Shown here: one piece after another, positions 5,139 to 27,154 of the stretch
Numbering within the stretch: the first letter of the stretch is position 1
Layout: each line of letters opens with the position of its first letter
IMG/VR virus record: IMGVR_UViG_3300042892_003674
Length of the DNA stretch: 64,000 nucleotides
Strand: one strand, 5' to 3'
Source: a virus
Taxonomy: Duplodnaviria > Heunggongvirae > Uroviricota > Caudoviricetes
Made by a program: the position numbers and the translations under genes
Notes under the pieces: model-generated
Told to the model about the DNA's origin: nothing
Seen by the model: only the letters and a program-made list of their open reading frames with translations
The model's database searches: none

Positions 5139-5208
5139 TGTTAGTAGGTATCTTTGATTTACTGTGGGAAATAGTTGAAGGAATAATCAAGCTATTTAAA
5201 AAATAAGA

Positions 5209-5424
5209 ATGGAATCATATCTAATTATATCATTGATAGGTATATCTATCGCTGTTACCGGTTTAATACTAATAAACTGTGATATAAAGTATAAAGGTAA
5301 ATGTATTCTACACGATTGGGAATATAAGTTTGAGTACGGTGACTATTGGAAATATACAGGATCATTCCTGAAATCCAATAGAAGATATGTTTGTAATAAA
5401 TGCTATAAAGAAATAAAGGAATAA
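5209..5424 (+). CDS. Membrane-anchored C-x-x-H-x-W / CxxC putative Zn-finger protein
   Basis: TM + CILHDW...CNKC; similar layout to 29401-29595. Confidence 0.65.
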   Translation: MESYLIISLIGISIAVTGLILINCDIKYKGKCILHDWEYKFEYGDYWKYTGSFLKSNRRYVCNKCYKEIKE

Positions 5425-8202: not shown

Positions 8203-8405
8203 AAGTGATGTGTATAGATCAATGTAATTTCAAAATGTGTGGATTTACTATTGAACCTGGTGACTGGTTAGAAGTTTATGATAATACCACAGATATAATT
8301 TCATATACATTTGAGAGAAATGGTAGTGAATGGTTTGTTGAGAAATATAAATTCATTACCGTTCAACAATTCAGACAGAAACAACTAGAAAAGATTGGTG
8401 TATAA
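8199..8405 (+). CDS. MKVxC family protein with C-terminal tag
   Basis: MKVMCI..FITVQQFRQKQLEKIGV. Confidence 0.8.
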   Translation: MKVMCIDQCNFKMCGFTIEPGDWLEVYDNTTDIISYTFERNGSEWFVEKYKFITVQQFRQKQLEKIGV

Positions 8406-8426
8406 AATCCGTACGTTTTTTATACT
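8399..8426. repeat. 28-bp palindromic site, copy 1
   Basis: tgtataaaatccgtacgttttttatac(t). Confidence 0.85.
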
Positions 8427-12132: not shown

Positions 12133-12160
12133 TGTATAAAATCCGTACGTTTTTTATACA
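12133..12160. repeat. 28-bp palindromic site, copy 2
   Basis: tgtataaaatccgtacgttttttataca. Confidence 0.9.
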
Positions 12161-12298: not shown

Positions 12299-12326
12299 TG
12301 TATAAAAAACGTACAGATTTTATACA
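12299..12326. repeat. 28-bp palindromic site, copy 3 (inverted, 1 mismatch)
   Basis: tgtataaaaaacgtacagattttataca. Confidence 0.9.
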
Positions 12327-12338
12327 AAGAATCAAATA

Positions 12339-12503
12339 TTAATGAAAATGTTTATCAGAAAATAACCGATCGATGATTTTCATCCTCCTTATTGTATTAA
12401 ATACTGAAAGTGGCTCTAACAAACCACTACCAGTATTATAAGTTATATTCTTTAATCCCAACTTCCTCTCAATCGATTCCTTTATCCTCAATTTTAAATC
12501 CAT
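12339..12503 (-). CDS. 54-aa micro-ORF with basic tag (IRRMKIIDRLF)
   Basis: Manual translation MDLKLRIKESIERKLG...; abuts 12506. Confidence 0.6.
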   Translation of the reverse strand: MDLKLRIKESIERKLGLKNITYNTGSGLLEPLSVFNTIRRMKIIDRLFSDKHFH

Positions 12504-12505
12504 AA

Positions 12506-12748
12506 TCAAACCAATACCCCTATTGTTGTCATTAAACCACCATTAAACGTGTTCCTTGAAACATCTATAGCTCTTATAACATAAGTTACACCTTCATATA
12601 AAATCGTGTCTCCCACGTCAACTTTCGGTAACTCCTTCTCCCATACCTCAGAACATAAACCAGACTTAATGAAATCTATAATCAATACAACTCCACGACC
12701 AGTTAGGTTAAACTTATCCGTAACAACCAAATTATCCCAATTCTTCAT
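12506..12748 (-). CDS. Small beta-barrel-like hypothetical protein
   Basis: DKFNLTGRGVV..VGDTI pattern, reminiscent of EF-Tu domain II-like barrels. Confidence 0.65.
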   Translation of the reverse strand: MKNWDNLVVTDKFNLTGRGVVLIIDFIKSGLCSEVWEKELPKVDVGDTILYEGVTYVIRAIDVSRNTFNGGLMTTIGVLV

Positions 12749-12873
12749 AATACTTTCCTCCTTCTATATACAATACGATCCTCATCAAAAATACCAAAAA
12801 TCCTCCTTATCGCAGCCTTCCTCATTAAAACACGTAAGAACTCATACTCATAATCATCTATCATAACTATCAT
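12745..12873 (-). CDS. 42-aa micro-ORF with basic tag (MRKAAIRRIFGI)
   Basis: ATGA overlaps at both ends. Confidence 0.65.
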   Translation of the reverse strand: MIVMIDDYEYEFLRVLMRKAAIRRIFGIFDEDRIVYRRRKVL

Positions 12874-13052
12874 CTCAAATAGGTGATACTATTTTGATTA
12901 AAATGTAACTTAATATATTTCCACTCTAAATACTCCTTTGAATGTGTCTTGTCATAAATAACTAAAGAATCAATAGGTAAATGAAATAACCTCTCAACCT
13001 TTCTAACTCGCTGCAATCTTTTCATCATATTACCCTCTTTCTTTAAATTCAT
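12870..13052 (-). CDS. Micro-ORF with basic tag (QRVRKVERLF)
   Basis: Coupled ORF. Confidence 0.6.
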   Translation of the reverse strand: MNLKKEGNMMKRLQRVRKVERLFHLPIDSLVIYDKTHSKEYLEWKYIKLHFNQNSITYLR

Positions 13053-13056
13053 GACC

Positions 13057-13428
13057 CTAACTTAAAATCTTCTCTAACTTTATCTGCCTAATCTTTTGCG
13101 GTAAATCCTCAATAATTTCTGATCCACTTACCGAAATACCATCATATAAACATGATATATGAACCTGATGATATTTCTCATTATAAACCGAAGAGTTCCA
13201 AGTCATTGATGATAACTTCTCAATAATTCTTATCACCTTTATACTATGATAATCATTTAAACCAGGCTTCTCCTTCATAAGTATATCAAATACATCCTGT
13301 GCCAAAAACTCAGCAATCTTAGTATAATCAAAATCCTGACCACTAGTAGTAAAACTAAATGACTTATCGTCGTTCTCTATAAGAACATCAACCAATTCTC
13401 CAAAACTATTTTCAAATATCATATCCAT
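13057..13428 (-). CDS. Hypothetical protein with C-terminal tag (IRQIKLEKILS)
   Basis: ORF, tag motif. Confidence 0.8.
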   Translation of the reverse strand: MDMIFENSFGELVDVLIENDDKSFSFTTSGQDFDYTKIAEFLAQDVFDILMKEKPGLNDYHSIKVIRIIEKLSSMTWNSSVYNEKYHQVHISCLYDGISVSGSEIIEDLPQKIRQIKLEKILS

Positions 13429-13598
13429 GAGATCTTATTTGTTAAATTATAATACCAATCACCATTAGTCATCCCATCAGGTTTAAATAACCTGAAAATC
13501 TTTCCCATACGATTCATTACAACCCTATGCTGTCTAGGTGTTCTATTAGGCTTCGTACTCTGTGTATGCAGAGAGTGTTTCACACTACTACTACTCAT
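13419..13598 (-). CDS. 59-aa micro-ORF with basic tag (NRMGKIFRLF)
   Basis: Manual translation; ATGA coupling. Confidence 0.55.
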   Translation of the reverse strand: MSSSSVKHSLHTQSTKPNRTPRQHRVVMNRMGKIFRLFKPDGMTNGDWYYNLTNKISWI

Positions 13599-13708
13599 AT
13601 CAATCCTTTCAAAATATGAATTATCTTCATCTTTCTTACAACACGTCTTCTCTCAATCCAACCAGGTAGATGAGAGCTCATATACTCTTCATACCACTTA
13701 TTATCCAT
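13595..13708 (-). CDS. 37-aa micro-ORF with basic tag (VRKMKIIHIL)
   Basis: MDNKWYEEYMSSHLPGWIERRRVVRKMKIIHILKGLI. Confidence 0.6.
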   Translation of the reverse strand: MDNKWYEEYMSSHLPGWIERRRVVRKMKIIHILKGLI

Positions 13709-13832
13709 TCAATATCCTTTTAATCTTTTTCATCCGTGAGTTCTTTCTTATCCACTTTAAATTCGTCGGTCTGTGAACTCTCTTAGACCATTCGGTATAA
13801 CCCATACCATAAGTGACTATCGGAAGCGCCAT
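13701..13832 (-). CDS. 43-aa micro-ORF with basic tag (SRMKKIKRIL)
   Basis: Manual translation; overlaps neighbours. Confidence 0.6.
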   Translation of the reverse strand: MALPIVTYGMGYTEWSKRVHRPTNLKWIRKNSRMKKIKRILNG

Positions 13833-13939
13833 GACAAAATCCTTTTAATCTTATACTTTCTTGTTAGAATAACAGGTAACCTAGCTTCTCGTAACTTATG
13901 CTTTTTCCACCACCTCAATTGAGTAAAATCATTATTCAT
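13817..13939 (-). CDS. 40-aa micro-ORF with basic tag (TRKYKIKRIL)
   Basis: Manual translation; ATGA coupling. Confidence 0.6.
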   Translation of the reverse strand: MNNDFTQLRWWKKHKLREARLPVILTRKYKIKRILSWRFR

Positions 13940-14163
13940 ATAAAAATCCTTTTAATCTTATTCTTTCTTATTAGTCTAGTCGGTAGTGTAACGTGAAGTT
14001 TAGCACTAGGGTTCAGAATACCTAAACCAACATTTACTGCACTGTAGAGAGTAAAAATCTTTTTAATCTTTCTCTTTCTAGCAATCTTACTACTATAGGT
14101 TCCTTTCACAGCATAGTACGAACCCGGTGAAATACCTAAACTACCTTTTTTTATCGGTTCCAT
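13936..14163 (-). CDS. Basic protein with two tag copies (ARKRKIKKIF, IRKNKIKRIF)
   Basis: ORF track and motif. Confidence 0.65.
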   Translation of the reverse strand: MEPIKKGSLGISPGSYYAVKGTYSSKIARKRKIKKIFTLYSAVNVGLGILNPSAKLHVTLPTRLIRKNKIKRIFI

Positions 14164-14338
14164 ACTTATTCAAAAACTCTTCTAAGATACATTCGATCAA
14201 TTCGTTTCTCTTATATTGGTTCGTCTCACAGTACAACTCAAACTGGTCATAAACCTCTTTGTTCATAAAGAAGTTTATCCTTTGCTTTTTTGGTTTAGGT
14301 GGTTTAAAACCTTTCTTCGCTCTTTCAAACATCGTCAA
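14141..14338 (-). CDS. Ribbon-helix-helix (CopG/Arc-like) DNA-binding protein
   Basis: KQRINFFMNKEVYDQFELYCE...KRNELIECILEEFL. Confidence 0.7.
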   Translation of the reverse strand: MTMFERAKKGFKPPKPKKQRINFFMNKEVYDQFELYCETNQYKRNELIECILEEFLNKYGTDKKR

Positions 14339-14558
14339 CTATTTTCTTTCTATATATATTCTAAATAATGCGAAAAGTTATCCACAATCGCAAATAAATG
14401 TAATGACCTTGAAAAGGTTTTTGGAACAACCTTACAAACACGAATAGGATCAACTAAAAATTTGTATAAAAAACGACCGGATTTTATACACTTTTGGTAA
14501 TTACACTTATTTTCACTATATTTAGGTAACTTCACGATACTATACTAATATAATGTAA
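14339..14558. other. Putative replication origin
   Basis: Divergent intergenic gap at C-rich to G-rich skew switch; DnaA box TTATCCACA at 14378-14386; palindrome copy 4. Confidence 0.55.
14463..14490. repeat. 28-bp palindromic site, copy 4 (inverted, 2 central mismatches)
   Basis: tgtataaaaaacgaccggattttataca. Confidence 0.9.
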
Positions 14559-14723
14559 ATGGATGATAAAAATATTGATAAAGTATGTACTGTTTTGGCT
14601 ACTCGAAAGTGTATGACTTTATATGGTTTTTACAGAAGTATAAGTAAGAATATGGTAAGATATGTTTTAAGACAAGCTAAGATTGTTTCAATATTTAAAG
14701 AGAGATTTGATTATGAAGAGTAA
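14559..14723 (+). CDS. 54-aa micro-ORF with tag (LRQAKIVSIF)
   Basis: Manual translation MDDKNIDKVCTVL... Confidence 0.55.
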   Translation: MDDKNIDKVCTVLATRKCMTLYGFYRSISKNMVRYVLRQAKIVSIFKERFDYEE

Positions 14724-15111
14724 TAAGAATTATCATAAGGATATGATAGAAAGTATAAAAGATTATACAAAGCATTATACTATAATAAGAGGTTATTGTG
14801 ATGTTTTTATAGATCCTAACAGAACACTTGTTCCACTTTATAGTGTTACTAATAATGACTATTGGATTGTGTTGGGTAATTTATCTGATGAGGCAATCGA
14901 TGATTTATTTGAGGATAGTTCTTTTAGTGATGAGGATGGTATTGAACGAGAAGGTTGTTATGAGTATTCGGCTTGTTTGTATTATTCTTCTGGTAGTTGG
15001 GATGAGCAATCAGAAAGTTACATTGATTATATAGATTTTAATTTTGTGGAGACTTTTGAGAGTAGGGATCGAGATAAGAAGTTGAATGAGTTATTGGGTT
15101 TTGATTTTTAG
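14713..15111 (+). CDS. Acidic hypothetical protein with C-terminal tag (DRDKKLNELLG)
   Basis: ATG 14713 preferred over TTG 14683. Confidence 0.8.
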   Translation: MKSNKNYHKDMIESIKDYTKHYTIIRGYCDVFIDPNRTLVPLYSVTNNDYWIVLGNLSDEAIDDLFEDSSFSDEDGIEREGCYEYSACLYYSSGSWDEQSESYIDYIDFNFVETFESRDRDKKLNELLGFDF

Positions 15112-15716
15112 TTTAGATTCCAGTCTATAGGTGTTATATTATTCTGTAATAGATATTGATTAGTTTTACTAAAGTGTTTATTATTGAACCATTTCCCTTG
15201 GTTGGCGGATAGGGGTGATGGATGGCCAGACTTGAGTATAAGGTGTTTTGTGCTATCGATTAGTTTTTCTGTTTTGTGAGCTTGTGAACCCCATAGAATG
15301 AATACGAGGTTTTCTTTATTATTATTTAGTTCTGATATAATATTATTGGTAAATTGTTCCCATCCTTTATTCTTATGTGAGTTGGGTTGGTTCTTTCTTA
15401 CTGTTAGTATTGTATTAAGAAGTAGTACACCTTGGTTATGCCAATGAGTTAGATTCCCGTGAGATGGTATTGTGATGTTTAAGTCGTTATTAAGTTCTTT
15501 AAAGATGTTTTTCAGAGAAGGTGGAATAGTTGTATCTAGGGTGGAGAAAGCTAGACCGTGAGCTTGGTTTTCACCGTGGTACGGGTCTTGACCTATGATG
15601 ATTACTTTAGTGTTATTAAGGTTGGTTAGTGCGTTAAGTATTAAATCTTTAGGTGGGAAGCATTGGTGTTGGGAATATTCTTTATCTATGAATTTTTTTA
15701 ATTCGGATGGTATCAT
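15108..15716 (-). CDS. ung: Uracil-DNA glycosylase, family 1
   Basis: GQDPYH, AHGLAFS, PPSLKNIFKEL, GVLLLN, HPSPLS. Confidence 0.97.
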   Translation of the reverse strand: MIPSELKKFIDKEYSQHQCFPPKDLILNALTNLNNTKVIIIGQDPYHGENQAHGLAFSTLDTTIPPSLKNIFKELNNDLNITIPSHGNLTHWHNQGVLLLNTILTVRKNQPNSHKNKGWEQFTNNIISELNNNKENLVFILWGSQAHKTEKLIDSTKHLILKSGHPSPLSANQGKWFNNKHFSKTNQYLLQNNITPIDWNLN

Positions 15717-16000
15717 GACAGGAGTAATTTTATTCTAAAGTTTCTTATTGTTTGTTTATCTGCTTTGGCAAGTTCTAGTGCGTATAGTAGTGCGCTTTCG
15801 TATGTTGGTAGTGTTATTTCGTTATTTGTGCCGTAGCCGCCGCATATAGCTGTTCCTAGTTGGTGTGTTACGGTACAGGAGTATCGGTTACCTTTGTGTG
15901 TAGTATCGTAGAAAGCATCAATTTCGATGGTTGTGTATTGGTCTAGTTGTATTGTTTCTATTATATTTTTGGTATAGTACTTTGATTTTGGTAATTTCAT
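15713..16000 (-). CDS. Hypothetical protein with C-terminal tag (IRNFRIKLLLS)
   Basis: Coupled to ung. Confidence 0.7.
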   Translation of the reverse strand: MKLPKSKYYTKNIIETIQLDQYTTIEIDAFYDTTHKGNRYSCTVTHQLGTAICGGYGTNNEITLPTYESALLYALELAKADKQTIRNFRIKLLLS

Positions 16001-16024: not shown

Positions 16025-16441
16025 ATGATGAGGTATTTAAAAAGTTTTATGGAGTCTGATTTTTATGTTAGGTTGAAAGGTGATGATTTGCAGGATGAAT
16101 TGGATGATGTTTGTGAGCAATTTTTGGCACCATTGGCGGATGATGGGTTTACGTATGAGGTTAGACCTGCTTGGAATGGTGAGTTTGATATAAGGTTATC
16201 TTTTACTGATGGTGGTCGTACGAATAAGTTATATGATTATTCTTTGGTGATGGATAGGTTTATCCCGTTGGTTCGTATGTTATCTAGGAGGTATGATTTA
16301 CATGATACTGTTTATTTTTATAGTACAGAGGTTTATGATATGGATAGGAAATCTTTTACGGTTGGGCAGATATTGAATGATGAGGCGCCGGATTTTTTGG
16401 TTACTACGGTTAAGTTGACGGTTAAGTCGAGGAAAGGTTAG
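16025..16441 (+). CDS. N-leader array paralog 1
   Basis: MRYLKSFMES; VCEQFLAPLADDGF; DRFIPL; TAATATATA at 16011. Confidence 0.85.
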   Translation: MMRYLKSFMESDFYVRLKGDDLQDELDDVCEQFLAPLADDGFTYEVRPAWNGEFDIRLSFTDGGRTNKLYDYSLVMDRFIPLVRMLSRRYDLHDTVYFYSTEVYDMDRKSFTVGQILNDEAPDFLVTTVKLTVKSRKG

Positions 16442-16540
16442 GATTGTGGTGGGACCAATCAGGGGTTCGGGGAGCCGTTGCCTTCGGCAAGTAGTTTGAG
16501 GGTCGTCGGAGTCGTAAACGTGCTGACGCACGTGGGGTTT
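16442..16540. other. GC-rich multi-hairpin non-coding island
   Basis: TGGT/ACCA, TTGCC/GGCAA and ACGTGC/GCACGT stems in an AT-rich genome. Confidence 0.6.
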
Positions 16541-16557
16541 TAAAATAAATTGTAGTG

Positions 16558-17028
16558 ATGAGATACATAAAGAAGTATAACGAAAGTAATTCAGAAGGTT
16601 TAACTGAGGAAGTAATAAAGGATTTCTGTGAGATGAATCTAGCTTATCTAATGGATGATGGTTTAAAGGTTTTGGTTTCACCAGATTATTTTGATTTAAA
16701 GGTTATAGATTATAAGGTGACGTTATCGTTTAGATTATTTGTTAATAAGAGGTGGGGTCAGATAAAGGATCAGGTTATACCATTTTTAACACATTTAAAG
16801 AATGAGTATGATTTAGTAGCAGATTTAGGTAATATGGGGGTTTCTGATTATTCTCAAAAGGTATTTTTAAAGAATAATATAAGGATTGAGATGATTGGTT
16901 CGGTAACTACATATCCTGATTGGTTTAATATAGATGATGTTATATCGGAGAAGATTGTTCCGGCTGGTCGTCTCCAAGACGATTATAAGATTTATACAAT
17001 TCAGTTTAAAATTAAAGGTAAGAAATGA
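16558..17028 (+). CDS. N-leader array paralog 2
   Basis: MRYIKKYNES; DFCEMNLAYLMDDG; WGQIKDQVIPFL. Confidence 0.9.
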   Translation: MRYIKKYNESNSEGLTEEVIKDFCEMNLAYLMDDGLKVLVSPDYFDLKVIDYKVTLSFRLFVNKRWGQIKDQVIPFLTHLKNEYDLVADLGNMGVSDYSQKVFLKNNIRIEMIGSVTTYPDWFNIDDVISEKIVPAGRLQDDYKIYTIQFKIKGKK

Positions 17029-17441
17029 AATACATAAAGACTAGTGAGACATTGAAATCAGAGGCAGATGTTGCTTATCAGAAAAGGATGGAGTTACAGG
17101 AGTTTGCTAATGATTGTTTAGTTTATCTTATAGATGATGAATGGTCGGTATCGGTGTGGGGATTTACTACATCGTTTAAGATTGTTTTGTTATCACCTAG
17201 GTCGGTTAAGAGAAATAGAGTTCATCATGATGATGTTACTTGGTTATCGGTAAAGAATCATGTTATTCCATTTGTTCAGATGTTATCTAATAGGTATCAT
17301 TTGGGTTATGAGGCAAGTTCATCGATTATTAGGATAGAGGCGACTTATTCGGATGATATACATATTAAGGATATAAAACAGTTAGAGGATTTATCGGATG
17401 ATATGTTATTTTATAGTTTTTCGATTGTAGTAAAAAAATAG
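17025..17441 (+). CDS. N-leader array paralog 3
   Basis: MKYIKTSE; FANDCLVYLIDD; WLSVKNHVIPF. Confidence 0.85.
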   Translation: MKYIKTSETLKSEADVAYQKRMELQEFANDCLVYLIDDEWSVSVWGFTTSFKIVLLSPRSVKRNRVHHDDVTWLSVKNHVIPFVQMLSNRYHLGYEASSSIIRIEATYSDDIHIKDIKQLEDLSDDMLFYSFSIVVKK

Positions 17442-17448
17442 GTTAGGT

Positions 17449-17955
17449 ATGAAACATTTGAGAAAGTTTAATGAGAGTATAGATGAGAATGAATTAAGGG
17501 ATTTCTGTGAGATCAATTTAGCTTATTTGTTAGATGATGGTTTTGAGATAATGATTAGTGGTAATAATTTCAGTGGAGATTCTTTTAAAAGTATAAAAAT
17601 AACTAATCCAAGGTCTTTAGATGATCGTCAGGATGGTACGGTAAATTATTTTAAATGGAATGACATTAAAGATCATTTTATACCATTTTTTACACGTTTA
17701 TTAAATCAGTATTCACTTTATGGTAACTTTATAGTGGCGGATGGTATATTGTTTCACTATATTGCACCTATGTATGCTCATGATAGAAGTACTAATTGGT
17801 ATAAATTCTCTGGGTTAAGGACTACAAAGTTGTATAAACCATCTTTAGATAATGTATTAAATGATGAGGTATATGATGATGTAAGTACAATACATAATGG
17901 TAATCATTGTATGAATTACTTATATAGTATTGAATTATTAGTAAAAGAAAAGTAG
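17449..17955 (+). CDS. N-leader array paralog 4
   Basis: MKHLRKFNES; DFCEINLAYLLDDGF. Confidence 0.9.
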   Translation: MKHLRKFNESIDENELRDFCEINLAYLLDDGFEIMISGNNFSGDSFKSIKITNPRSLDDRQDGTVNYFKWNDIKDHFIPFFTRLLNQYSLYGNFIVADGILFHYIAPMYAHDRSTNWYKFSGLRTTKLYKPSLDNVLNDEVYDDVSTIHNGNHCMNYLYSIELLVKEK

Positions 17956-17961
17956 TAAGGT

Positions 17962-18420
17962 ATGAAACATTTAAGAAGGTATAATGAGAGTTTAGATAAA
18001 GATGAGTTAGAGGATTTCGTAGAGAGTTGTTTAGCTTATTTATTGGATGAGGGTTTTAATGTTTTTATTCCTAGATCATCTGGTGATGATTCTGTTGCGA
18101 TTTGGTTAGCTATTTCTAATCAATATTCTACTAATTCAACTTCATTCACTTGGGATCAGATAAAGGATCATTACATACCGTTATTGAAGTTATTATCTAA
18201 TAGGTATGATATAATTGGATTTGGTGAGCCGAGTAGAGATGGTCGTTCTATTGAGATGGATTCGACTGCTCAGATAAGATTTAGATTACAACCGGAATAT
18301 AGTAGTGATGCGTTTAGGGATTTTCCGTTATACAAGGTGATGAATGATACTTTATTTGGTTCTTATTCGTATGAGCCAAGTTTATATTCGGTGGGTATTA
18401 TGATTAAAGAAAAAAGATAG
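17962..18420 (+). CDS. N-leader array paralog 5
   Basis: MKHLRRYNES; CLAYLLDEGF. Confidence 0.9.
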   Translation: MKHLRRYNESLDKDELEDFVESCLAYLLDEGFNVFIPRSSGDDSVAIWLAISNQYSTNSTSFTWDQIKDHYIPLLKLLSNRYDIIGFGEPSRDGRSIEMDSTAQIRFRLQPEYSSDAFRDFPLYKVMNDTLFGSYSYEPSLYSVGIMIKEKR

Positions 18421-18422
18421 GT

Positions 18423-18935
18423 ATGAAACATTTAGTACGAAGTACTCTTTACGGAGGTAAAGTAAGAAGATTCAATGAAGGTTTGTCTTCTAATGAATTT
18501 GATGAGTTAAAAGATTTTAGTGAAAGTTGTTTAGCTTATTTATTGGATGAGGGTTTTGAGCTTGAGTTGGTGGATAGATATGGTCGTGATTCAAATGACC
18601 CTTCGTATGAGATTGACTCGGATTACTTTTGGATTGATCTTTATGGTCCGTTTATTACTCAGCCTGATATGTATGGTGCAGTTCCTAATGATAGAAGTTA
18701 TAGTTGGAATCAGATAAAAGATTATTATATTCCATTTCTTCAGTTATTAAAGGCGAGGTATGTATTAGTAGATGATGAAAGAAGTTATAAAGGAGATGTG
18801 GTTTACTTTAAGATACTAGAAGGCGCAGATGTTGATACGGCATTTAAAGAGTTTAAACTTGACGAGGTTATAGGAGATAAGATTACATTAGATAGTATCT
18901 TTTCAGTATCAATAAAAGTAAGTAGTAAGATATGA
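18423..18935 (+). CDS. N-leader array paralog 6 (10-aa insertion in leader)
   Basis: MKHL[VRSTLYGGKV]RRFNE. Confidence 0.9.
   Translation: MKHLVRSTLYGGKVRRFNEGLSSNEFDELKDFSESCLAYLLDEGFELELVDRYGRDSNDPSYEIDSDYFWIDLYGPFITQPDMYGAVPNDRSYSWNQIKDYYIPFLQLLKARYVLVDDERSYKGDVVYFKILEGADVDTAFKEFKLDEVIGDKITLDSIFSVSIKVSSKI
18433..18464. mobile_element. 28-bp double-hairpin insertion flanked by TA
   Basis: TA-GTACGAAGTACTCTTTACGGAGGTAAAG-TA. Confidence 0.55.
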
Positions 18936-19459
18936 AACATTTGAGAAAGTTTAGTACGAAGTACTCTCTGCTAGAACAGAGTAATGAGAGTTATACTCAG
19001 CAAGATTTAGATGAGTTAAAAGAGTTTTGTGATGATCACTTATCATATTTGATTGATGAGGATTATAAGGTTTCTGTTCAAGATTTTGAGACAAATGCTG
19101 GTAGTGTATTACAGGTTGTTGTTAGACCACCGAAGGTTATGAGAAAGAATAATTGGGCAACAAGATTAAAAACGAATTTAATTGAGGAAGAGTTGGGAAC
19201 ACCTTTTTCACATTTCAAGGATAGGTTGATACCATTTGTTTATATGTTATTGAAGGATTATCGTTTGATAACCAATGAAGAGATGGATAGAATGGAATTA
19301 GGTCATGATGAGGGTGGTATGGGTTTTGCGATGCCTAATCCTAATAGTAACATATTAGATACGAAAATGGTACGTGTTAGTTCTTTAGAACATTTAGAAC
19401 AGGTTGAAGATAATCTAATGGTTTCAACATTTTATATAAGAATAAAAAAGAAAGATTAG
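18932..19459 (+). CDS. N-leader array paralog 7 (10-aa insertion in leader)
   Basis: MKHLRKF[STKYSLLEQS]NES. Confidence 0.9.
   Translation: MKHLRKFSTKYSLLEQSNESYTQQDLDELKEFCDDHLSYLIDEDYKVSVQDFETNAGSVLQVVVRPPKVMRKNNWATRLKTNLIEEELGTPFSHFKDRLIPFVYMLLKDYRLITNEEMDRMELGHDEGGMGFAMPNPNSNILDTKMVRVSSLEHLEQVEDNLMVSTFYIRIKKKD
18952..18983. mobile_element. 28-bp double-hairpin insertion flanked by TA
   Basis: TA-GTACGAAGTACTCTCTGCTAGAACAGAG-TA. Confidence 0.55.
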
Positions 19460-19461
19460 TT

Positions 19462-21162
19462 ATGAGAAAGTTTTTATTAACTATATTATTAATGTTAGCT
19501 ACAATTGCCGTTACAGCTCAAAGTGTTACCGCTCCTCCAGCAACATCATATAATCAAAATACTTCAAATCAAAGTGCTACGGGATTTTCGGTATCAGGAT
19601 TTGTACCGACATCTACTTTATTAGTTACTGTTGGGTTAGTTAATCCTCCGTCAGGTACTACTTTAAGATTTTCGACGACATCAGGAGTAACTGCGAGCAC
19701 AGGATATGCAATGACATCTAATTTTACTAGAATTAGTTTTACAGGCCTTCAAGCAAATGTAAATACAGTTCTAGCATCACTTTTAGTAAACACAGGTTCA
19801 ACACCTGGGAATTTATATATAGCAGTTACTGCAACAGAAAATCCGGCAGGTTATTTTTATTTACCGACAAATGGTCACTTTTATCGACCAATCGCCGCGG
19901 GAGCAACTTATACCAATGCAAGAGCTGCTGCATTGAATACGACATTTAGAGGTCAGCAGGGATATTTAGTAACTATCACTTCTGCTGATGAAGATTTGTT
20001 TATCTTTAACAACGTTCCTCAATCTCAAATATGGTTTGCATTAACAGATGAAGGAGTAGAAGGACAGTGGAGAATTGATGCTGGTCCAGAAGCCGGTACA
20101 TTAATCAAGACATCTAATGGTCAGACAGCAGGTAACATTGCAGGTCAGTATAATAATTGGGCAGGTGGAGAACCTAATAACTCTGGTAATGAAGATTATG
20201 CAGTAACAAAGTGGAATGGTTCTCAATGGAATGACTTACCTAACAGTTTTTCATGTCCTTATGTAATTGAATATGGTACATGGTCTGATCCTGCAAATCA
20301 AACTTTTACAAATTTCTATACAGGATTCGTAACTCATCAAATAGCGTGTAGTCCTGCAACCTCACCAACAACTCCTAACGGAGTTAATGGCTCTAGATCA
20401 TTAGCAGGAACAGTTTCTTTATCAGCAACGACAGCAGCGGGTACGACTGTAGATTGGTATGCTAATGCAACAGGTGGTAATGTACTTTCTGGAGGTTCTG
20501 GAACTTTATCATTTACGACTCCTAGTATTTCAGAAACTAAAACATATTACGCTCAAGCTAGGAATTCAACGACAGGATGTGTTAGTTCATCAAGAACTGC
20601 TGTGGTGGCTACTGTAAATTACCCAACACCATTTACATACTCAGGCACTATTAATAGTTCTTTAGGAGCTGGAGTACCAAATATTGCAGTTAAGGTTTAC
20701 TATAAAACAAAGGCAGGATCTACATATACATTGTTACAAACATATACGACAGATAATTTTGGTATATTTTCAATTTCAACTTCGCTAGATATTTCAAGTT
20801 ATGACTTTCAAATAGTTATTGATAGCATACCTATTACATCTCCTTCTGTATCCGATGCATTAATATTTAATCAAAAGGTATTATTTCAAACGTTTGATGC
20901 AAAGGATTATTATAGAATGAATACCAATGGTAATTCTAATTTAACAGTCGCTGATATATTTTTAATCTATAGAAGAATTAATGGTACTTCATTTTCAGTA
21001 CCAGTATATAGATTATTTACACAAACCGAATGGAGTATTATTAATGCATCGACTGCAAATTTAACAGCCTCATATACAGGCACACAAACTATAACTTTAA
21101 CTAACCCAACAGCAGGTGGTAATTCAACATTCTACCTAATTAAAACAGGATTCGCTAACTAA
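19462..21162 (+). CDS. Secreted C-type lectin / Ig-like domain protein
   Basis: Signal peptide; GHFY..YLVTITSADE..WAGGEPNN..WND..YVIEY; VDWY..TPSISETKTYY Ig-like; dockerin-like NTNGNSNLTVAD. Confidence 0.85.
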   Translation: MRKFLLTILLMLATIAVTAQSVTAPPATSYNQNTSNQSATGFSVSGFVPTSTLLVTVGLVNPPSGTTLRFSTTSGVTASTGYAMTSNFTRISFTGLQANVNTVLASLLVNTGSTPGNLYIAVTATENPAGYFYLPTNGHFYRPIAAGATYTNARAAALNTTFRGQQGYLVTITSADEDLFIFNNVPQSQIWFALTDEGVEGQWRIDAGPEAGTLIKTSNGQTAGNIAGQYNNWAGGEPNNSGNEDYAVTKWNGSQWNDLPNSFSCPYVIEYGTWSDPANQTFTNFYTGFVTHQIACSPATSPTTPNGVNGSRSLAGTVSLSATTAAGTTVDWYANATGGNVLSGGSGTLSFTTPSISETKTYYAQARNSTTGCVSSSRTAVVATVNYPTPFTYSGTINSSLGAGVPNIAVKVYYKTKAGSTYTLLQTYTTDNFGIFSISTSLDISSYDFQIVIDSIPITSPSVSDALIFNQKVLFQTFDAKDYYRMNTNGNSNLTVADIFLIYRRINGTSFSVPVYRLFTQTEWSIINASTANLTASYTGTQTITLTNPTAGGNSTFYLIKTGFAN

Positions 21163-21246
21163 AAATTTACTATTTTTACTGTTAAGTTGAAGATGGTTTA
21201 ATGTTTTCTACGTTTTATATATAAGAGTTAAAAGAAAGATTAGTTT

Positions 21247-21702
21247 ATGAAACATTTAAGAAAGTTCAATGAGGGGTTAAAAGAAGAGTTACAGGATTTC
21301 TGTGAGACTTACCTAGCTTATTTGATTGATGAGGGGTTTAAAGTAAGGATTTCAAAGTTTGAAGGAGATGACTTTCATCAGATAATGTTGGGTTATGCAA
21401 CAGACGGTTCGGGATATGGTAATAATAATCGTTTATGGTCAGAGATGAAGGATCAGGTTTTGCCGTTCTTACATTTTTTATTTAAGGATTACGAATTGTA
21501 TTGGGATAACGGTGTAGAAGCACCGATGGGTATTATTTATCATTTAATGGGTGGTTCTGGTACATCTGGTTCTCTTAGACAAAGTAGTCTAACATTGAAG
21601 CAGATAAATGATTTACCTGATGATACTGAGATAGCTACTTTATTTATTAGGGTTATTAAAAAGGAAGAAAAGGTTGAAAAAGCTTGGTTTAGAAAATTTT
21701 AA
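21247..21702 (+). CDS. N-leader array paralog 8
   Basis: MKHLRKFNEG; DFCETYLAYLIDEGF. Confidence 0.9.
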   Translation: MKHLRKFNEGLKEELQDFCETYLAYLIDEGFKVRISKFEGDDFHQIMLGYATDGSGYGNNNRLWSEMKDQVLPFLHFLFKDYELYWDNGVEAPMGIIYHLMGGSGTSGSLRQSSLTLKQINDLPDDTEIATLFIRVIKKEEKVEKAWFRKF

Positions 21703-21716
21703 ATAATATATACATT

Positions 21717-22163
21717 ATGAAGTATTTAAGAAGTATTTTTGAAGAGGTCAATCAAAATGAGTATGAAGAGTTAAAAGATTTCTGTGAGATGTATTTAGCT
21801 TACTTATTAGATGATGGTGATTGGCGAATAGACATTTCTATGAGAACTCAGGTTTATCCACATACTGGTTTTTATGACGTTATGATTTGGAGAAGATATG
21901 AGACGAATGCAGATGGATCACATAGTTATCCTAATTGTACTTGGGATGATGTATCTGATTATTTTATACCATTTTTCAAAGTTTTGATAGATAATTATGA
22001 GTTAGTGCCTAGTGTTTCTCGTAGTATGAAAACGGGAGAGCTTGTTGATAATTTAGTGGAGTTTTCAGGGGCAAATGTACCAAAGGAAAAGATATTAGGT
22101 AATTTGATACCGGGTAATCAACCAGCTAGAAAAATAAGTTTTAAAGTAAAACGTAAGATATGA
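21717..22163 (+). CDS. N-leader array paralog 9
   Basis: MKYLRSIFEE; TAATATATA at 21704. Confidence 0.9.
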   Translation: MKYLRSIFEEVNQNEYEELKDFCEMYLAYLLDDGDWRIDISMRTQVYPHTGFYDVMIWRRYETNADGSHSYPNCTWDDVSDYFIPFFKVLIDNYELVPSVSRSMKTGELVDNLVEFSGANVPKEKILGNLIPGNQPARKISFKVKRKI

Positions 22164-22612
22164 GGTATTTAAAGAAGATTTTCGAGAACGATTTATATAA
22201 ACAGGTTGATTCGGATGAGTTAAAAGATTTCTGTGAGACTTACTTAGCTTATTTATTGGACGATACTAGTTTTAAGATAGAGGTTATTGATACAGAAAAG
22301 TGGGATTCATATACTATCTGGTTGGGTAAGACTTTAGTAGATCGTCGTATTCAGACTTTTAGTTGGGATGACATTAAAGATTATTATATTCCATTTGTTA
22401 CGATTTTATCAAGAGAATATGATTTGAATGATATAGATTTAGATCAGAGAAGTTCGAGTATTATTATCAATTTTATGTCTGGTAATCAATTATTTGTTAC
22501 TGCGTCTGGTATTGAAGATTGGGATGGTAGACTTACAAAAAGACCAGATTTTTATAACGGTAATGGTATCAAAGAGATTGGTATTGTAGTAAAAAATACT
22601 ATAAAGATATGA
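22160..22612 (+). CDS. N-leader array paralog 10
   Basis: MRYLKKIFEN; WDDIKDYYIPF. Confidence 0.9.
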   Translation: MRYLKKIFENDLYKQVDSDELKDFCETYLAYLLDDTSFKIEVIDTEKWDSYTIWLGKTLVDRRIQTFSWDDIKDYYIPFVTILSREYDLNDIDLDQRSSSIIINFMSGNQLFVTASGIEDWDGRLTKRPDFYNGNGIKEIGIVVKNTIKI

Positions 22613-23067
22613 GGTATTTAAAAACATTTGAGTCTATTGATTTAGAGAAAGATTTAAGAGATTTTTGTGAGACTTATCTAGCTTATTTGTTAGATGGTGA
22701 TTTTGAATTATCTGTTATTTGGCAGGGTCATAATCCTTTTCTGGTCCCATATAACCGTTATAATATAAATCTAGTTAAGTTAAATGATTATGGAGCTACT
22801 GGATTTACTTGGAATGAGGTTAAAGATTACTATATTCCTTTTTTACATATGTTGAATAAAGATTATGAGATAATGGATGAAGGTGAAGCAAGTAGAAACG
22901 CGGGGCAGTGGGATGTTCCTTGTATTTGTTTATATAATGGTAGTCAAAACTTTTGTGTTTCGGTTAAGGATATTTTATCTGGTGAGCCTTTACCTGGTAG
23001 ATATGATGATAGACCTTTATTAGAGATTACACTTCAGGTTGCGTTCAAAAATAAATTGGTAGAATGA
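22609..23067 (+). CDS. N-leader array paralog 11
   Basis: MRYLKTFES; WNEVKDYYIPFL. Confidence 0.9.
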   Translation: MRYLKTFESIDLEKDLRDFCETYLAYLLDGDFELSVIWQGHNPFLVPYNRYNINLVKLNDYGATGFTWNEVKDYYIPFLHMLNKDYEIMDEGEASRNAGQWDVPCICLYNGSQNFCVSVKDILSGEPLPGRYDDRPLLEITLQVAFKNKLVE

Positions 23068-23945
23068 GATATTTAAAAAGATTTAATGAGTCAGTTGATT
23101 TAAAATCACAACTACGTGATTTTAGTGAGTCTTATCTAGTTTATTTGTTAGATGATGGTTATACGGTAAATATTACACAAGCAAGTGATCATTCAGGTGG
23201 TGGTGGTTTGCCACCAAATGCATTTTTGATAAAATTGAGTAATGACATTGATTTTACTTGGTTAGATGTTAAAGAGTCATATATTCCATTTTTACATATG
23301 TTAAATAGAGACTACAATATAGTAGATCAGTCTATAATGATTTATGATTATAATGATGATACTGAGTTTGGTATTGAAACAATTTTATCTGGTAATCCTT
23401 TACCATTTGATAATAAAAGTTTAATAGAGATTTTAGTTTGGGTCACTTTTGATAAACCTATTAAAGAGTCTGTTGAATTGAAGACAGATGATGTAGAACA
23501 TTATTTGGTTGAGTTATTGGATTCTGGATTTGATGATGTCAGGGTTACTAAAAGTGCTGATAGATATAAGGATGTTGAACCAATGACTGCAATTTCTATG
23601 GAGAGAAAGCTTACTACTGATGAGTGGCAATCTATTTTAAGAACTGGTATTATATATGAGAATGTGATAATTGGTGTGAGATCTGAACCGATGAGAGTAT
23701 TTACTTCTAGTCAATTTAAGAAGCCAGTTCCTTTATCTATTTTTAAATCTGATATATTGAATCAGGTTGAGTTTTTCGCACAGGATGCTGCAGATAAGAT
23801 TTTATTGAGTTTATCTGATAAGTTTGTTAGTAAGAAGATTGTGATGTCTTTTAAGGCAGGTGCAGGTCAGGTTCAACGATATAATTTTGGTGACATTTCG
23901 ATTAGATTACAGATTATTTTAACAGAAAAGGAAGATACAAAATGA
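23064..23945 (+). CDS. N-leader array paralog 12, two domains joined at IKE-S
   Basis: Second YLVELLDSGF motif after KPIKESV. Confidence 0.9.
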   Translation: MRYLKRFNESVDLKSQLRDFSESYLVYLLDDGYTVNITQASDHSGGGGLPPNAFLIKLSNDIDFTWLDVKESYIPFLHMLNRDYNIVDQSIMIYDYNDDTEFGIETILSGNPLPFDNKSLIEILVWVTFDKPIKESVELKTDDVEHYLVELLDSGFDDVRVTKSADRYKDVEPMTAISMERKLTTDEWQSILRTGIIYENVIIGVRSEPMRVFTSSQFKKPVPLSIFKSDILNQVEFFAQDAADKILLSLSDKFVSKKIVMSFKAGAGQVQRYNFGDISIRLQIILTEKEDTK

Positions 23946-24370
23946 AATATTTAAAGAGGATTTTTGAGAATTTAGATAAGGATGAGTTACAAGATTTCTG
24001 TGAGATGAACTTAGCTTATTTATTGGATAATGAAGATTTTAGGATAGACATTGAATACTTTGATGACTTGATAGGTCAGTATTTGGTTGTTATTAAATTG
24101 GTTAAAATGGTTGAGCTTAGTGCTGGTGGAAGAATGACGACGATGTATCAGTGGCAAGAGGTTAAAGATTATATTGTACCGTTTATTGTACAATTGAATA
24201 AGAGTTATAGTTTGAATACAACTTGGAATGATAATAAAGGTTCGATTACTATTCGTCAGGAACAAGAGTGGAGAAACTTTTCTTATGAGAAGTTTATGAG
24301 GGTTGTTGATAATTGGTATGAAGATGATGATGAGATAAGATATATTGAAATAATATTAGATAATAAATGA
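23942..24370 (+). CDS. N-leader array paralog 13
   Basis: MKYLKRIFEN. Confidence 0.9.
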   Translation: MKYLKRIFENLDKDELQDFCEMNLAYLLDNEDFRIDIEYFDDLIGQYLVVIKLVKMVELSAGGRMTTMYQWQEVKDYIVPFIVQLNKSYSLNTTWNDNKGSITIRQEQEWRNFSYEKFMRVVDNWYEDDDEIRYIEIILDNK

Positions 24371-24840
24371 AACACTTAAAAAAATACAATGAAGCGGTTG
24401 GTGGTGTGAATGGAGTTAATGATTTCTGTGAGGGTTACTTAGCAAATATTTTAGATGATGATTCTTATCAGTTTAATGTAACAGAGCAAATGTCTGGCCA
24501 TAGGGTATCACCATCGTATTATTTTAGTTTATACAAAGTAGGTAATGGTGCATATGATATAATTCAGTGGGATGAGATTAAGGATCAGATTATACCATTT
24601 TTACATATGTTGATAAGAGAGTATAGTATTGAACCTATGAGACTTATAGATCAATCGAAGCTAACCTATCAAACAAAAAACGTTTATATAGATGATAATC
24701 CTAGAAACAGAACGATTCAGTTTAACAGGTATTTACCGGATACTTATAGTTCTGATCTTTATTATATGGATGTGAGGAATGTTATAAAGGACGAGGATGT
24801 TCCTGAAAAATTCTATCGAATACAATTACAATTTTACTAA
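24367..24840 (+). CDS. N-leader array paralog 14
   Basis: MKHLKKYNEA. Confidence 0.9.
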   Translation: MKHLKKYNEAVGGVNGVNDFCEGYLANILDDDSYQFNVTEQMSGHRVSPSYYFSLYKVGNGAYDIIQWDEIKDQIIPFLHMLIREYSIEPMRLIDQSKLTYQTKNVYIDDNPRNRTIQFNRYLPDTYSSDLYYMDVRNVIKDEDVPEKFYRIQLQFY

Positions 24841-24856
24841 TATAATATATAGTTCT

Positions 24857-25324
24857 ATGAAATACTTAAAACCATTTAACGAAGCCGTAACACAAGACGA
24901 CATTGAATTATGTTGTGTTGATTTATTTGATGATGGATTTGAATTAAATGGTTATAATAAGACTGGTAAAACAATAATTCAGTTAGTGAAGAATATTACT
25001 TCTTCATTACCAGACGATCAATCTAATATAGTTGTAGTTGATGAACATTCAAAGAATTATAGACAAGGTACAATAACTATATCAGGTAGAAATTTTGATC
25101 ACGTTATTGCAAAAGAAAGATCTAGTGATCTACCATTTACTGAGAATGAGAATAAACTTATAAGTCAAGTTAGTGATGCTGCAAATCTATTGAGACATTA
25201 TAGTAGTACTAATGGTGGGACTGATCGTGTTGTTATTACTATAACAAGTAGAGGAATACAGAATCCTATGAACTTTGAATATGAAAGATACTTAACACAA
25301 ATAAATATATTATTCTATATATGA
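24857..25324 (+). CDS. N-leader array paralog 15 (LCCVDL subfamily)
   Basis: Start moved to MKYLKPFNEA; TAATATATA at 24843. Confidence 0.9.
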   Translation: MKYLKPFNEAVTQDDIELCCVDLFDDGFELNGYNKTGKTIIQLVKNITSSLPDDQSNIVVVDEHSKNYRQGTITISGRNFDHVIAKERSSDLPFTENENKLISQVSDAANLLRHYSSTNGGTDRVVITITSRGIQNPMNFEYERYLTQINILFYI

Positions 25325-25830
25325 GATACTTAAAAGGGTTTAATGAAGCTATTGAACAAGACAACATTGATTTATGTTGTGTTGATTTATATGATGATGG
25401 ATTTCAGTTACTAGGTTATAACAAGACTGGTAATACCTTGATTTCATTACAGAAGAAAATAGTTAGTCAATTAGATCAGTGGGATGGTCACACAGGAACA
25501 GATACTAGAGCAGGAGTTATGTGGGATGAACATTTAAGTAAGTATCAACCGGGAACTATTACTATTACTGGTGATAATTTTGATAAGGTTGAAACTAGTT
25601 TTAGACAAACTTGTGGTTGGGATAGAACTAGACCATTACCATTTACTGATGATGAGAATAAACTTATAAATCAAGTTACTGATGCGGCTAGTATATTGAC
25701 ACATTATAGTGATACTGAGGTAAAAAGAAAAAGAGTTGAAATACAAATTTCTAGTAGAGGTTTACAAAATCCTATGAACTTTGAATATGATAAATACTTA
25801 ACAATATTAAAGGTAACATTCTTCTTATGA
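25321..25830 (+). CDS. N-leader array paralog 16 (close duplicate of 15)
   Basis: LCCVDL, GYNKTG, LPFT..ENKLI, QNPMNFEY shared. Confidence 0.9.
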   Translation: MRYLKGFNEAIEQDNIDLCCVDLYDDGFQLLGYNKTGNTLISLQKKIVSQLDQWDGHTGTDTRAGVMWDEHLSKYQPGTITITGDNFDKVETSFRQTCGWDRTRPLPFTDDENKLINQVTDAASILTHYSDTEVKRKRVEIQISSRGLQNPMNFEYDKYLTILKVTFFL

Positions 25831-26768
25831 GATACTTAAAGAGATTTAATGAGGCAATTGAACCAGATGAGATAAAAGACTTCTGTGAGCAGTATCTAGC
25901 TTATTTGTTAGATGATGGTTATGCTTTAGCTTTTAGAGAATCTGGTAGAATAACTCAAGTAGACTTTGTTAAACCAAAGGAAAATCCTTTACACGGTAGA
26001 TGGAGTCCTGGTTTTGGTGGACCGGTTGATTGGATGGATTGGGATCATATAAAAGATAGTTTTATTCCTTTTTTAAAGATGTTAGATAAGGAGTATGATG
26101 TTAAGGATAATCTTATAACTTTTCAATGTCCTAGCGCGATACAAATTCAAATATCTTTTCAGGATGTTATTGATGATAAAGTAAAAGATATACTTCATGA
26201 CAAACTTACATTAGATGCTAGAGATAGAATTAGTTCTGTTAGAATAAATGTTATCGATCATAGTGTTAAGGATTATGCTTGGCAGGTTAAAGAAGCTAAA
26301 GAAGATTGGAGAAGAAACTTCAGTGATGATGAGTTACAAGAAGTTTGTGATACATTTTTACCTTATCTTTATGATGAGGGTTTTGTTGTACACACCACGG
26401 TGCCTACTTATTTTATGTTTAAGAAAAACATTATTACACTTTGGAAAGAACAAGAAAAAGGTGATGGTCGAGGATTAGAGACTCTTCCATTTTATTGGCA
26501 TGAGATAAAAGATAGATTTCTACCACTTTTTGATTATTTGAATAAGAATTATCCGTTGGGTAAGGTTAGATTGGTTCATTATTATAATTCTTGGGAAAGA
26601 AAAGAGAACAAGAAAGAAGTGGTTTTTAAATCGGATAATGATAAAGAATCTTGGAGTGGACTTCCATTTAGTAAGTTTGAGGAGATTATGTCGAGAGATG
26701 CCGCTTATAGAAGACCAATGAAGATTGGTGAGATAATAATAGAAGTACAAAATTTAGATGAGTTATGA
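25827..26768 (+). CDS. N-leader array paralog 17, two domains joined at VKE-A
   Basis: Second VCDTFLPYLYDEGF and WHEIKDRFLPL. Confidence 0.9.
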   Translation: MRYLKRFNEAIEPDEIKDFCEQYLAYLLDDGYALAFRESGRITQVDFVKPKENPLHGRWSPGFGGPVDWMDWDHIKDSFIPFLKMLDKEYDVKDNLITFQCPSAIQIQISFQDVIDDKVKDILHDKLTLDARDRISSVRINVIDHSVKDYAWQVKEAKEDWRRNFSDDELQEVCDTFLPYLYDEGFVVHTTVPTYFMFKKNIITLWKEQEKGDGRGLETLPFYWHEIKDRFLPLFDYLNKNYPLGKVRLVHYYNSWERKENKKEVVFKSDNDKESWSGLPFSKFEEIMSRDAAYRRPMKIGEIIIEVQNLDEL

Positions 26769-27154
26769 GATATATAAAGTTATTTGAGGGTTTTAAAGAT
26801 GATTTACTTGGATTTACTCAGGACCGCTTAGCTTATCTTATGGATGATGGATTTGATCTTACAACAAATGACACACAGAATGGTTACTGGCGTGAATATA
26901 ATGTTGATTGTGGAAAAATTTCAATAGTTAAACGTTCAGGTTTCACTTGGGAGGAAATTACTGATAGATTCTCACCGTATATTTATATGTTGAATAAAGA
27001 ATATAGTATTTTAGAAATAGTATTTCATCAGAGTGGTGGAAGACAACAACAATATGATACTAGAAAAGATATAGAAGAACTTGTAAGTGGTGAATCGGAT
27101 CAGTATCTTACCAATAAGTTGTATTGGATGATAACAATAATAGTAAACAAATGA
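26765..27154 (+). CDS. N-leader array paralog 18
   Basis: MRYIKLFEG; LAYLMDDGF. Confidence 0.9.
   Translation: MRYIKLFEGFKDDLLGFTQDRLAYLMDDGFDLTTNDTQNGYWREYNVDCGKISIVKRSGFTWEEITDRFSPYIYMLNKEYSILEIVFHQSGGRQQQYDTRKDIEELVSGESDQYLTNKLYWMITIIVNK

Follow-up and report, generated by a model that had tools for sequence, protein, structure and literature searches.

An operon of very small, basic proteins united by a conserved peptide motif in a huge Bacteroidota-type phage

What does a phage encode in a run of very short, arginine- and lysine-rich open reading frames (ORFs), and how do these relate to a peptide tag that the same phage places at the C-terminus of many of its proteins? The question is raised by positions 12339-14723 of a 64,000-nucleotide stretch of Caudoviricetes DNA (IMG/VR record IMGVR_UViG_3300042892_003674; "the window" below is this whole stretch), in which about 24 ORFs carry, 0-4 residues before the stop codon, the sequence R-[DEN]-x-[KQ]-[LI]-x-x-[LI]-[GL](-I), here called the canonical tag. 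An earlier, sequence-only reading had singled out nine micro-ORFs in this region and had described them as a basic sub-class of the tag, used as near-standalone peptides on either side of a putative origin. All nine ORFs exist where that reading had placed them, and the short-overlap tiling that it described is borne out once three further ORFs (14141-14332, 13057-13428 and 12506-12748) are added.

Eleven ORFs tile positions 12339-14338 on the minus strand, with overlaps of 4-23 nt at their junctions and one 4-nt gap, and together they cover 99.8% of this interval; in 2000 Markov shuffles the cover averaged 18% and never exceeded 53%. They form a single operon, headed by a repressor gene of the Arc/ribbon-helix-helix (RHH) type and ending at a palindromic hairpin. 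Eight of the products are microproteins of 37-75 amino acids (aa) with a net charge of +3 to +16. From first gene to last, the operon reads as follows:

14141-14332, minus strand: gene 1, repressor of the Arc/ribbon-helix-helix type, 63 aa, with PHROG matches
13936-14163, minus strand: microprotein 2, 75 aa, net charge +16, two fused tandem units (2a and 2b)
13817-13939, minus strand: microprotein 3, 40 aa, net charge +11, motif RKYKIKRIL at 13835-13861
13701-13832, minus strand: microprotein 4, 43 aa, net charge +10, motif RMKKIKRIL at 13710-13736
13595-13708, minus strand: microprotein 5, 37 aa, net charge +4, motif RKMKIIHIL at 13610-13636
13419-13598, minus strand: microprotein 6, 59 aa, net charge +8, motif RMGKIFRLF at 13485-13511
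13057-13428, minus strand: protein 7, 123 aa, net charge -9, an ordinary small acidic protein
12870-13052, minus strand: microprotein 8, 60 aa, net charge +7, motif RVRKVERLF near the N-terminus at 12984-13010
12745-12873, minus strand: microprotein 9, 42 aa, net charge +3, internal motif RKAAIRRIF at 12796-12822
12506-12748, minus strand: protein 10, 80 aa, an ordinary small protein without the motif
12339-12509, minus strand: microprotein 11, the last operon gene, 54-56 aa, net charge +5

That this is an operon of real micro-genes is nearly certain. We searched 5.8 billion predicted proteins and then fetched the contigs of the matches; homologues of microprotein 2 were 80-99% identical and those of microprotein 6 were 59-98% identical. 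The operon, with its RHH gene followed by the microgenes, is present in at least eight metagenomic lineages of one huge-phage group (the window; Rel-A, comprising L001-L007 and L011; L008; L009; L010; L012/L013; L014; and L015), and most of the relatives' micro-ORFs had already been called by independent gene callers. Between the window and its relatives, synonymous differences in the annotated frames of the micro-ORFs (pS 0.370) outweighed nonsynonymous ones (pN 0.133), and the differences were distributed over the three codon positions as 123:115:225. The ratio of nonsynonymous to synonymous divergence (dN/dS) was 0.06-0.5 per ORF, equal to or below the values for the two ordinary operon genes (0.22-0.49 for protein 7, kept in three lineages, and 0.37-0.53 for protein 10, kept in Rel-A and L015); the pairs behind these ratios are not phylogenetically independent, and the direction is the same for each ORF alone. 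The comparison of dN/dS against relatives that the sequence-only reading had proposed as a check thus finds the ORFs conserved.

Family by family, the C-terminal 20 codons of microprotein 3 are kept in four lineages (dN/dS 0.06-0.30), and orthologues were found of microprotein 4 in 6 lineages (0.08-0.49), of microprotein 5 in 4-5 lineages (0.24-0.49) and of microprotein 11 in Rel-A and L015 (0.18-0.24). Microprotein 9 is 95% identical to its Rel-A counterpart, with 5 synonymous and 2 nonsynonymous changes (0.08), and the repressor is 98% identical in Rel-A (0.18). Microproteins 2 and 8 are the exceptions to this clear signal: microprotein 2 has nearly no synonymous divergence from Rel-A (dS 0.02), so that its ratio is uninformative, and in Rel-A and L014 only the N-terminal third of microprotein 8, with the motif, is kept and the tail has diverged. 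As judged from these alignments, all the microprotein families are evidently under purifying selection in their annotated frames. The families of microproteins 4, 5, 6, 9 and 11 each keep 15-30 conserved residues besides the motif, and the description of the ORFs as little more than the tag is therefore wrong for most of them.

The operon belongs to a huge phage of Bacteroidota type. Metagenomic contigs 515,853 and 648,731 bp long, the former being k141_1259128 of ENA ERZ27263685, carry close relatives of the region, and contigs of 0.5-0.65 Mb imply a huge phage. The window itself (30% G+C) reads as phage DNA from a Bacteroidota host: one of its genes is for a secreted endonuclease I whose C-terminal domain is of the type IX secretion kind, paralogous small genes stand in long arrays, and gene starts are preceded by an A-rich region at -15 to -9, which is the Bacteroidota pattern. 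Shine-Dalgarno sequences are not enriched at gene starts (4 of 75 genes, compared with 3.5 at random), and for this reason the possibility that the string AAAAGGA within the tag serves as a Shine-Dalgarno site was rejected.

What unites the microproteins is a nine-residue motif. The strict pattern R..[KA][IV]..[IL][FL] has nine matches in 12 ORFs, where residue shuffles predict 0.028 and never gave more than 2 in 20000 rounds, and a looser basic pattern has nine matches in the 2.4 kb of the region, compared with five, all poor, in the other 61.6 kb. Microprotein 2 holds two copies, RKRKIKKIF (14053-14079) and RKNKIKRIF (13942-13968). Four of the nine strict copies are recent tandem duplicates that share the identical DNA 17-mer AAGATTAAAAGGATTTT at a spacing of 107-125 bp. 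About six of the nine copies are therefore independent, which is still far above chance, and the local G/A composition that had been named as a possible trivial cause of the motif does not account for it. The peptides quoted in the sequence-only reading are correct; its statement that every ORF carries the motif holds with one reservation, since in the ORF at 12339 the motif (RRMKIIDRLF, 12360-12389) is one residue too long and fits only if this is allowed for.

Over the eight lineages together there are 42 motif copies with 27 distinct 9-mers and the consensus R1-[KM]-x-K4-I5-x-R7-[IL]8-[FL]9; all 27 basic 9-mers keep R1, K/R/A4, I/V5 and I/L8. An alignment of the microprotein 6 family, made without reference to the motif, has its invariant columns at exactly positions 1, 4, 5, 7, 8 and 9. 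In L008 the motif stands on a different N-terminal body. The first position is invariably Arg, encoded by AGA, AGG, CGT, CGA or CGG, and all five of these codons occur among the orthologues of microprotein 4 alone; five codons for one constant residue mean that selection acts on the peptide and not on the DNA. By this codon evidence, the motif is evidently conserved at the peptide level.

The same can be said of the canonical tag, whose information content rises and falls with a 3-base period, third positions being almost unconstrained and the codons for Leu and Arg varied, and the two motifs resemble each other in several respects. The skeleton of the tag—Arg1, Lys/Gln4 and Ile/Leu/Val at positions 5 and 8—is present in the basic motif; both are probably helical. 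Intermediates between the classes exist (RMRKIERIL, RVRKVERIF and RQAKIVSIF), and genes with the canonical tag are interleaved in the operon itself: three of them in L015 and, in the window, protein 7, which ends in the canonical-type sequence RQIKLEKIL-S (13063-13089; 20.3 bits on a canonical-tag matrix). The AlphaFold2 model of protein 7 (predicted local distance difference test, pLDDT, 47) was unusable.

For microprotein 6, AlphaFold2 run on the family alignment placed the motif in a helix at residues 20-36 (local pLDDT about 80, overall 69), with a second helix following. On a helical wheel, positions 1, 4, 5, 8 and 9 fall at 0, 300, 40, 340 and 80 degrees, that is, on one face within an arc of about 140 degrees, and this face mixes Arg/Lys with Ile/Phe. 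Such a face suits a docking helix, for a protein or possibly for nucleic acid. We tentatively propose, from the geometry of the motif and its context, that the microproteins serve as small basic adaptors or competitors. Their motif helix would dock on the partner of the tag, or on a paralogous or otherwise related one, and the rest of the protein, rich in Arg/Lys, would hold on to nucleic acid or to acidic surfaces; we regard this as possible, yet somewhat short of probable.

A number of observations weigh against this proposal. The Asp, Glu, Asn or Gln at position 2 of the tag is replaced in the basic class by K, M, I, L, V, F or Y, with Gln in p1 alone (the plus-strand ORF at 14559-14723, described below), and the basic class has a fixed Arg7 and prefers Ile5 and Phe9 where the tag has Leu5 and Gly/Leu9. 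On a matrix built from 23 canonical tags, the basic motifs score -9 to +10 bits, compared with 18-29 for real tags, and the p-values of single motifs are mostly above 0.01; the best-scoring window on this matrix is the motif, in register, in nine of nine motif-bearing ORFs, a coincidence that is partly circular since the motif was first defined on the skeleton of the tag. Position in the protein is mixed: the motif lies at most 5 residues from the C-terminus in 18 of 42 copies, and the others are internal or N-terminal, 9 of them at least 25 residues from the end. In the model of microprotein 6 the motif helix packs on the second helix of the same protein (at an overall pLDDT of only 69), so that the hydrophobic face of the motif may be hidden there instead of being open to docking. 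Finally, a common allele of the relatives carries a 10-residue insertion within the motif (RKY|SADAESALHY|KIKRIL) that persists on at least 15 contigs. Taken together, the sequences suggest that the basic motif is a distinct class built on the same skeleton as the tag and not a clear sub-class of it: the constrained positions R1, K4, I/V5, I/L8 and F/L9 do coincide with those of the tag.

Very small and very basic proteins usually bind nucleic acid, and the microproteins might do the same independently of the tag, as Arg/Lys-rich helices like those of lambdoid N or as tiny polybasic proteins of the ribosomal or DNA-condensing kind, with a likeness to the tag that is superficial or convergent. 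They are extremely basic throughout (+3 to +16 in 37-75 aa, with Arg/Lys outside the motif too), score low on the canonical matrix, conserve Arg7 as well and have many copies of the motif away from the C-terminus, and a DNA-binding repressor heads their operon, with conserved hairpin sites adjoining. We nevertheless consider this somewhat unlikely: three large hydrophobic residues are conserved on the face of R1 and K4, which is atypical of arginine-rich RNA-binding peptides, and neither Pfam, PHROGs nor the PDB sequences gave a match to a nucleic-acid-binding family, nor did Foldseek return anything below E = 1. It is improbable that the microproteins are charge-complementary "anti-tags," in which the basic helix would pair with the tag helix via the shared Ile/Leu, much as in designed E-coil/K-coil pairs, and so cap or bridge tagged proteins. 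The hydrophobic spacing is indeed equal, the charge character is opposite at positions 2, 6 and 7, and both motif classes are interleaved in one operon; however, Arg1 and Lys4 are common to both classes and hence not complementary, and a motif of about 1.3 heptads is too short for a stable coiled coil alone.

Slightly more improbable still are membrane-active or membrane-targeted cationic amphipathic peptides of the MinD/FtsA kind, with a role in host takeover, superinfection exclusion or lysis control. A composition of Lys/Arg with Ile/Leu/Phe resembles the tail motif of MinD, and the hydrophobic moments of microproteins 6 (0.57) and 4 (0.42) would suit such a peptide, but the moment is just 0.03-0.29 in six of eight copies, and the clean apolar face with a high moment that marks the MinD/FtsA type is absent, as the hydrophobic arc is interrupted at its center by Arg1 and Lys4. 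This arrangement lowers the moment and argues against a membrane-seeking helix and in favor of a specific docking surface, as do the charged residues conserved at fixed positions, which point to a specific interaction; there is also no transmembrane segment and no signal peptide. Very improbable, lastly, is that the peptides have no function of their own and that the repeat is a DNA or RNA signal (iterons, operators, or the A-rich initiation region) or a series of relay frames that pass ribosomes on. Four tandem copies do share an exact DNA 17-mer at 107-125 bp spacing, the codons of C-terminal motifs overlap the A-rich -15 to -9 region before the next starts, and a perfect DnaA box (TTATCCACA, plus strand, 14378-14386) lies 40 bp upstream of the operon. 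Beyond the four recent duplicates, however, the DNA differs and the peptide is kept; third-position changes are about twice as frequent as those at first or second positions; the motif copies of unit 2a and of microproteins 6, 8, 9 and 11 have no gene start following; the DnaA box is not conserved in relatives; and Shine-Dalgarno sites are unused. The variety of Arg1 codons, together with dN/dS of 0.06-0.5, largely refutes this explanation.

In a broader scheme, the microproteins would act in trans within a peptide address system, in which more than 100 proteins would carry the helical C-terminal tag and the microproteins would compete for its receptor or pair with the tags, timing or gating the destination of the tagged proteins; we think this scheme distinctly unlikely. 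To our knowledge, regulated addressing by short linear motifs with "tag-only" regulators has been described for no phage. Should both motifs share a partner, synthetic peptides would offer an easy handle on the receptor of the tag system and on how a 0.5-Mb phage sorts its proteome. Huge phages have hundreds of genes without assigned function, and here a single motif runs through an entire operon of microproteins, some of them overlooked by gene finders, and resembles a tag that dozens of unrelated proteins of the genome carry.

Quite apart from any link with the tag, the locus shows cleanly how microprotein families can be under strong selection and yet be rapidly rearranged. Units 2a, 2b, 3 and 4 are tandem paralogues in which the motif is the best-conserved part. 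The number of units differs among relatives, including the homologues of microprotein 2, and hybrid junctions occur inside the motif DNA, for example one that joins the body of 2b to the tail of microprotein 3; the motif DNA is therefore a recombination point while its peptide is still selected, and repeated coding motifs can evidently act in this way. In L014 a frame change re-partitions microprotein 4, and Rel-A, L009 and L015 have additional motif-bearing micro-ORFs that are not found in the window. The families evolve by tandem duplication, by unequal crossing-over at the repeated motif DNA, by frame changes and by in-frame micro-insertions.

One of these insertions is a TA-flanked, 30-bp double-hairpin micro-element (for example TA-CTCTGC-GGAT-GCAGAG-AGTGC-TTT-GCACT-A-TA) that adds 10 residues in frame and occurs at no fewer than five different operon sites in different strains, once inside the motif of a relative's gene, where it produces the RKY|SADAESALHY|KIKRIL allele: in the window within the N-terminal part of microprotein 6 (13556-13587, minus strand), in L002 at 5206-5235 and 5292-5321, in L009 at about 440-470 and 505-535, and in L014 at about 5350-5380. 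Possibly of a second kind is an in-frame insertion of 42 bp in one lineage (L014 5090-5131, also P0020/P0021), by which microprotein 6 gains 14 residues immediately behind its motif. Further, when window positions 13936-14332 are compared with L002 4827-5268, the repressor and microprotein 2 have a dS of 0.02-0.07 and the rest of the operon a dS of 0.26-1.2; the low values suggest that the 5' end of the operon was recently exchanged or underwent gene conversion.

In kind, much of this is known from elsewhere, both the arrays of tiny phage genes that evolve fast and the short peptide motifs that are portable between proteins. T4-type hyperplastic regions are reportedly arrays of tiny early genes that are shuffled via repeated promoter-stem-loop cassettes, and they share with the present locus the dense, strain-variable tiny genes, the change of copy number by recombination at a repeat and the hairpins at unit borders; the repeat of T4, however, is an intergenic regulatory cassette, whereas here it lies inside coding sequence and is itself a selected peptide motif. 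The capsid-targeting sequence of T4 and the cargo-loading peptides of encapsulins are likewise short terminal peptides that unrelated proteins share, in a phage or with an HK97-type shell, and they too come with polymorphic, fast-evolving loci for small proteins. There is no sequence similarity to either; the T4 peptide, on internal proteins, is N-terminal and the present motif C-terminal or internal. The arginine-rich motifs of lambdoid N and the helices of MinD/FtsA resemble the present motif in being short, basic and helical and in belonging to small proteins of phages or bacteria, but homology was detected to neither; the former are without the fixed Ile/Ile/Phe triad of the microproteins, and the latter have a clean hydrophobic face where most copies here have a moment below 0.3. 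A close relation is the phage's own C-terminal tag, with which the basic motif shares Arg1, Lys4, aliphatic residues at 5 and 8 and conservation of the peptide; the two differ at positions 2, 3, 6 and 7, acid or amide in the tag and basic in the microproteins, and the basic motif is often internal or N-terminal, on carriers of only 28-90 aa. What is unusual is that one selected helical motif unites non-homologous microprotein families and resembles a genome-wide tag.

Database searches place the repressor and little else. Against PHROG profiles it matched phrog_876 at 1.2e-7 and phrog_3180, an Arc-like repressor, at 2.9e-7, and in Pfam it had a weak match to RepB-RCR_reg (0.022). Pfam and PHROGs gave no significant match for microproteins 2-6, 8, 9 and 11, for p1 or for three extra micro-ORFs of the relatives, and no family match for protein 10. 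PDB sequence searches with microprotein 4 and proteins 7 and 10 gave insignificant rows only, though protein 10 may perhaps resemble domain II of translation factors; microprotein 6 had no match in the ESM Atlas, and its model found nothing below E = 1 when compared with the PDB by Foldseek. A profile of microprotein 6, searched against 1.84 billion proteins, returned 15 cluster representatives, all of 43-73 aa and none of them a fused or longer form. Among the INPHARED phages the region had no blastn match and microprotein 2 gave only tblastn noise; IMG/VR scans with proteins 7 and 10 and the repressor found no relatives; and a literature search that included the motif strings found nothing relevant. 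The C-terminal "RLY" motif of bS21 (PMC7550191) was considered and set aside as a different motif on a different protein.

The surroundings of the operon bear on the suggestion that the micro-ORFs flank an origin. Three features adjoin it:

14559-14723, plus strand: ORF p1, 54 aa, with RQAKIVSIF at 14670-14696, overlapping the start of the tagged gene 14713-15111
14464-14489, plus strand: AT-rich palindromic hairpin copy in the divergent gap upstream of the operon, kept upstream of the repressor gene in relatives
12300-12325, plus strand: palindromic hairpin copy directly after the last operon gene

Both hairpins are copies of a 26-bp palindrome, GTATAAAAAACG-N4-GATTTTATAC, of which the window has four (8400-8425, 12134-12159, 12300-12325 and 14464-14489) where none is expected. 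All four lie at gene ends, in an orientation that follows the strand of the upstream gene; relatives have copies too, and that of Rel-A likewise comes after the last micro-gene. The RNA hairpins are weak, with folds at -6 to -7 kcal/mol. These palindromes could be terminators or protein-binding sites, and the copy at 12300-12325 is likely the end of the transcription unit. The DnaA box, also in the divergent gap, is perfect only in the lineage of the window: that of Rel-A carries one mismatch, and L008, L012, L014 and L015 lack it. Relatives keep instead the hairpin, a TTAGTTGATCCTATTCG block and, upstream of the repressor gene, a stretch that resembles a promoter. From this pattern, the gap looks like a regulated divergent promoter region, and the putative origin finds no support. 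On the other side of the gap, the plus-strand ORF p1 exists as had been reported, with a motif-like RQAKIVSIF; its one known relative is 96% identical, with 3 synonymous and 2 nonsynonymous differences, and it is not present in Rel-A. On this thin support, p1 is probably a gene.

The operon also stands apart from the rest of the window in its composition. Its coding strand is very G-rich (GC skew about -0.38 on the plus strand), and its codon usage is biased along with this: AAG:AAA is 46:29 compared with 150:345 elsewhere, and AGG:AGA is 21:21 compared with 42:205. A constraint on the DNA behind the invariant AAG at Lys4 of the motif was considered and rejected, because the operon as a whole prefers AAG, and AGG too.

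Elsewhere in the window, positions 16025-27975 and 74-505 hold a large tandem array of paralogues of about 150 aa with the common N-terminal leader M-K-H-L-K-K-F-N-E. The first 34 residues of a 426-aa protein (38021-39301, minus strand) are 71% identical to LR756501.1 530871-530972; LR756501 is a 735-kb "uncultured phage" record, Mahaphage, which beyond this N-terminal stretch had no further match to the protein, and C-terminal tags are absent from a 40-kb sample of it around the matching site. The genes between that for uracil-DNA glycosylase and the operon vary by lineage (window 14559-15111 and 15108-16000, compared with L002 3423-4608): the window has two plus-strand genes there, p1 and p2, and Rel-A has another order, together with a Cys-rich ORF of 44 aa that carries the canonical tag.

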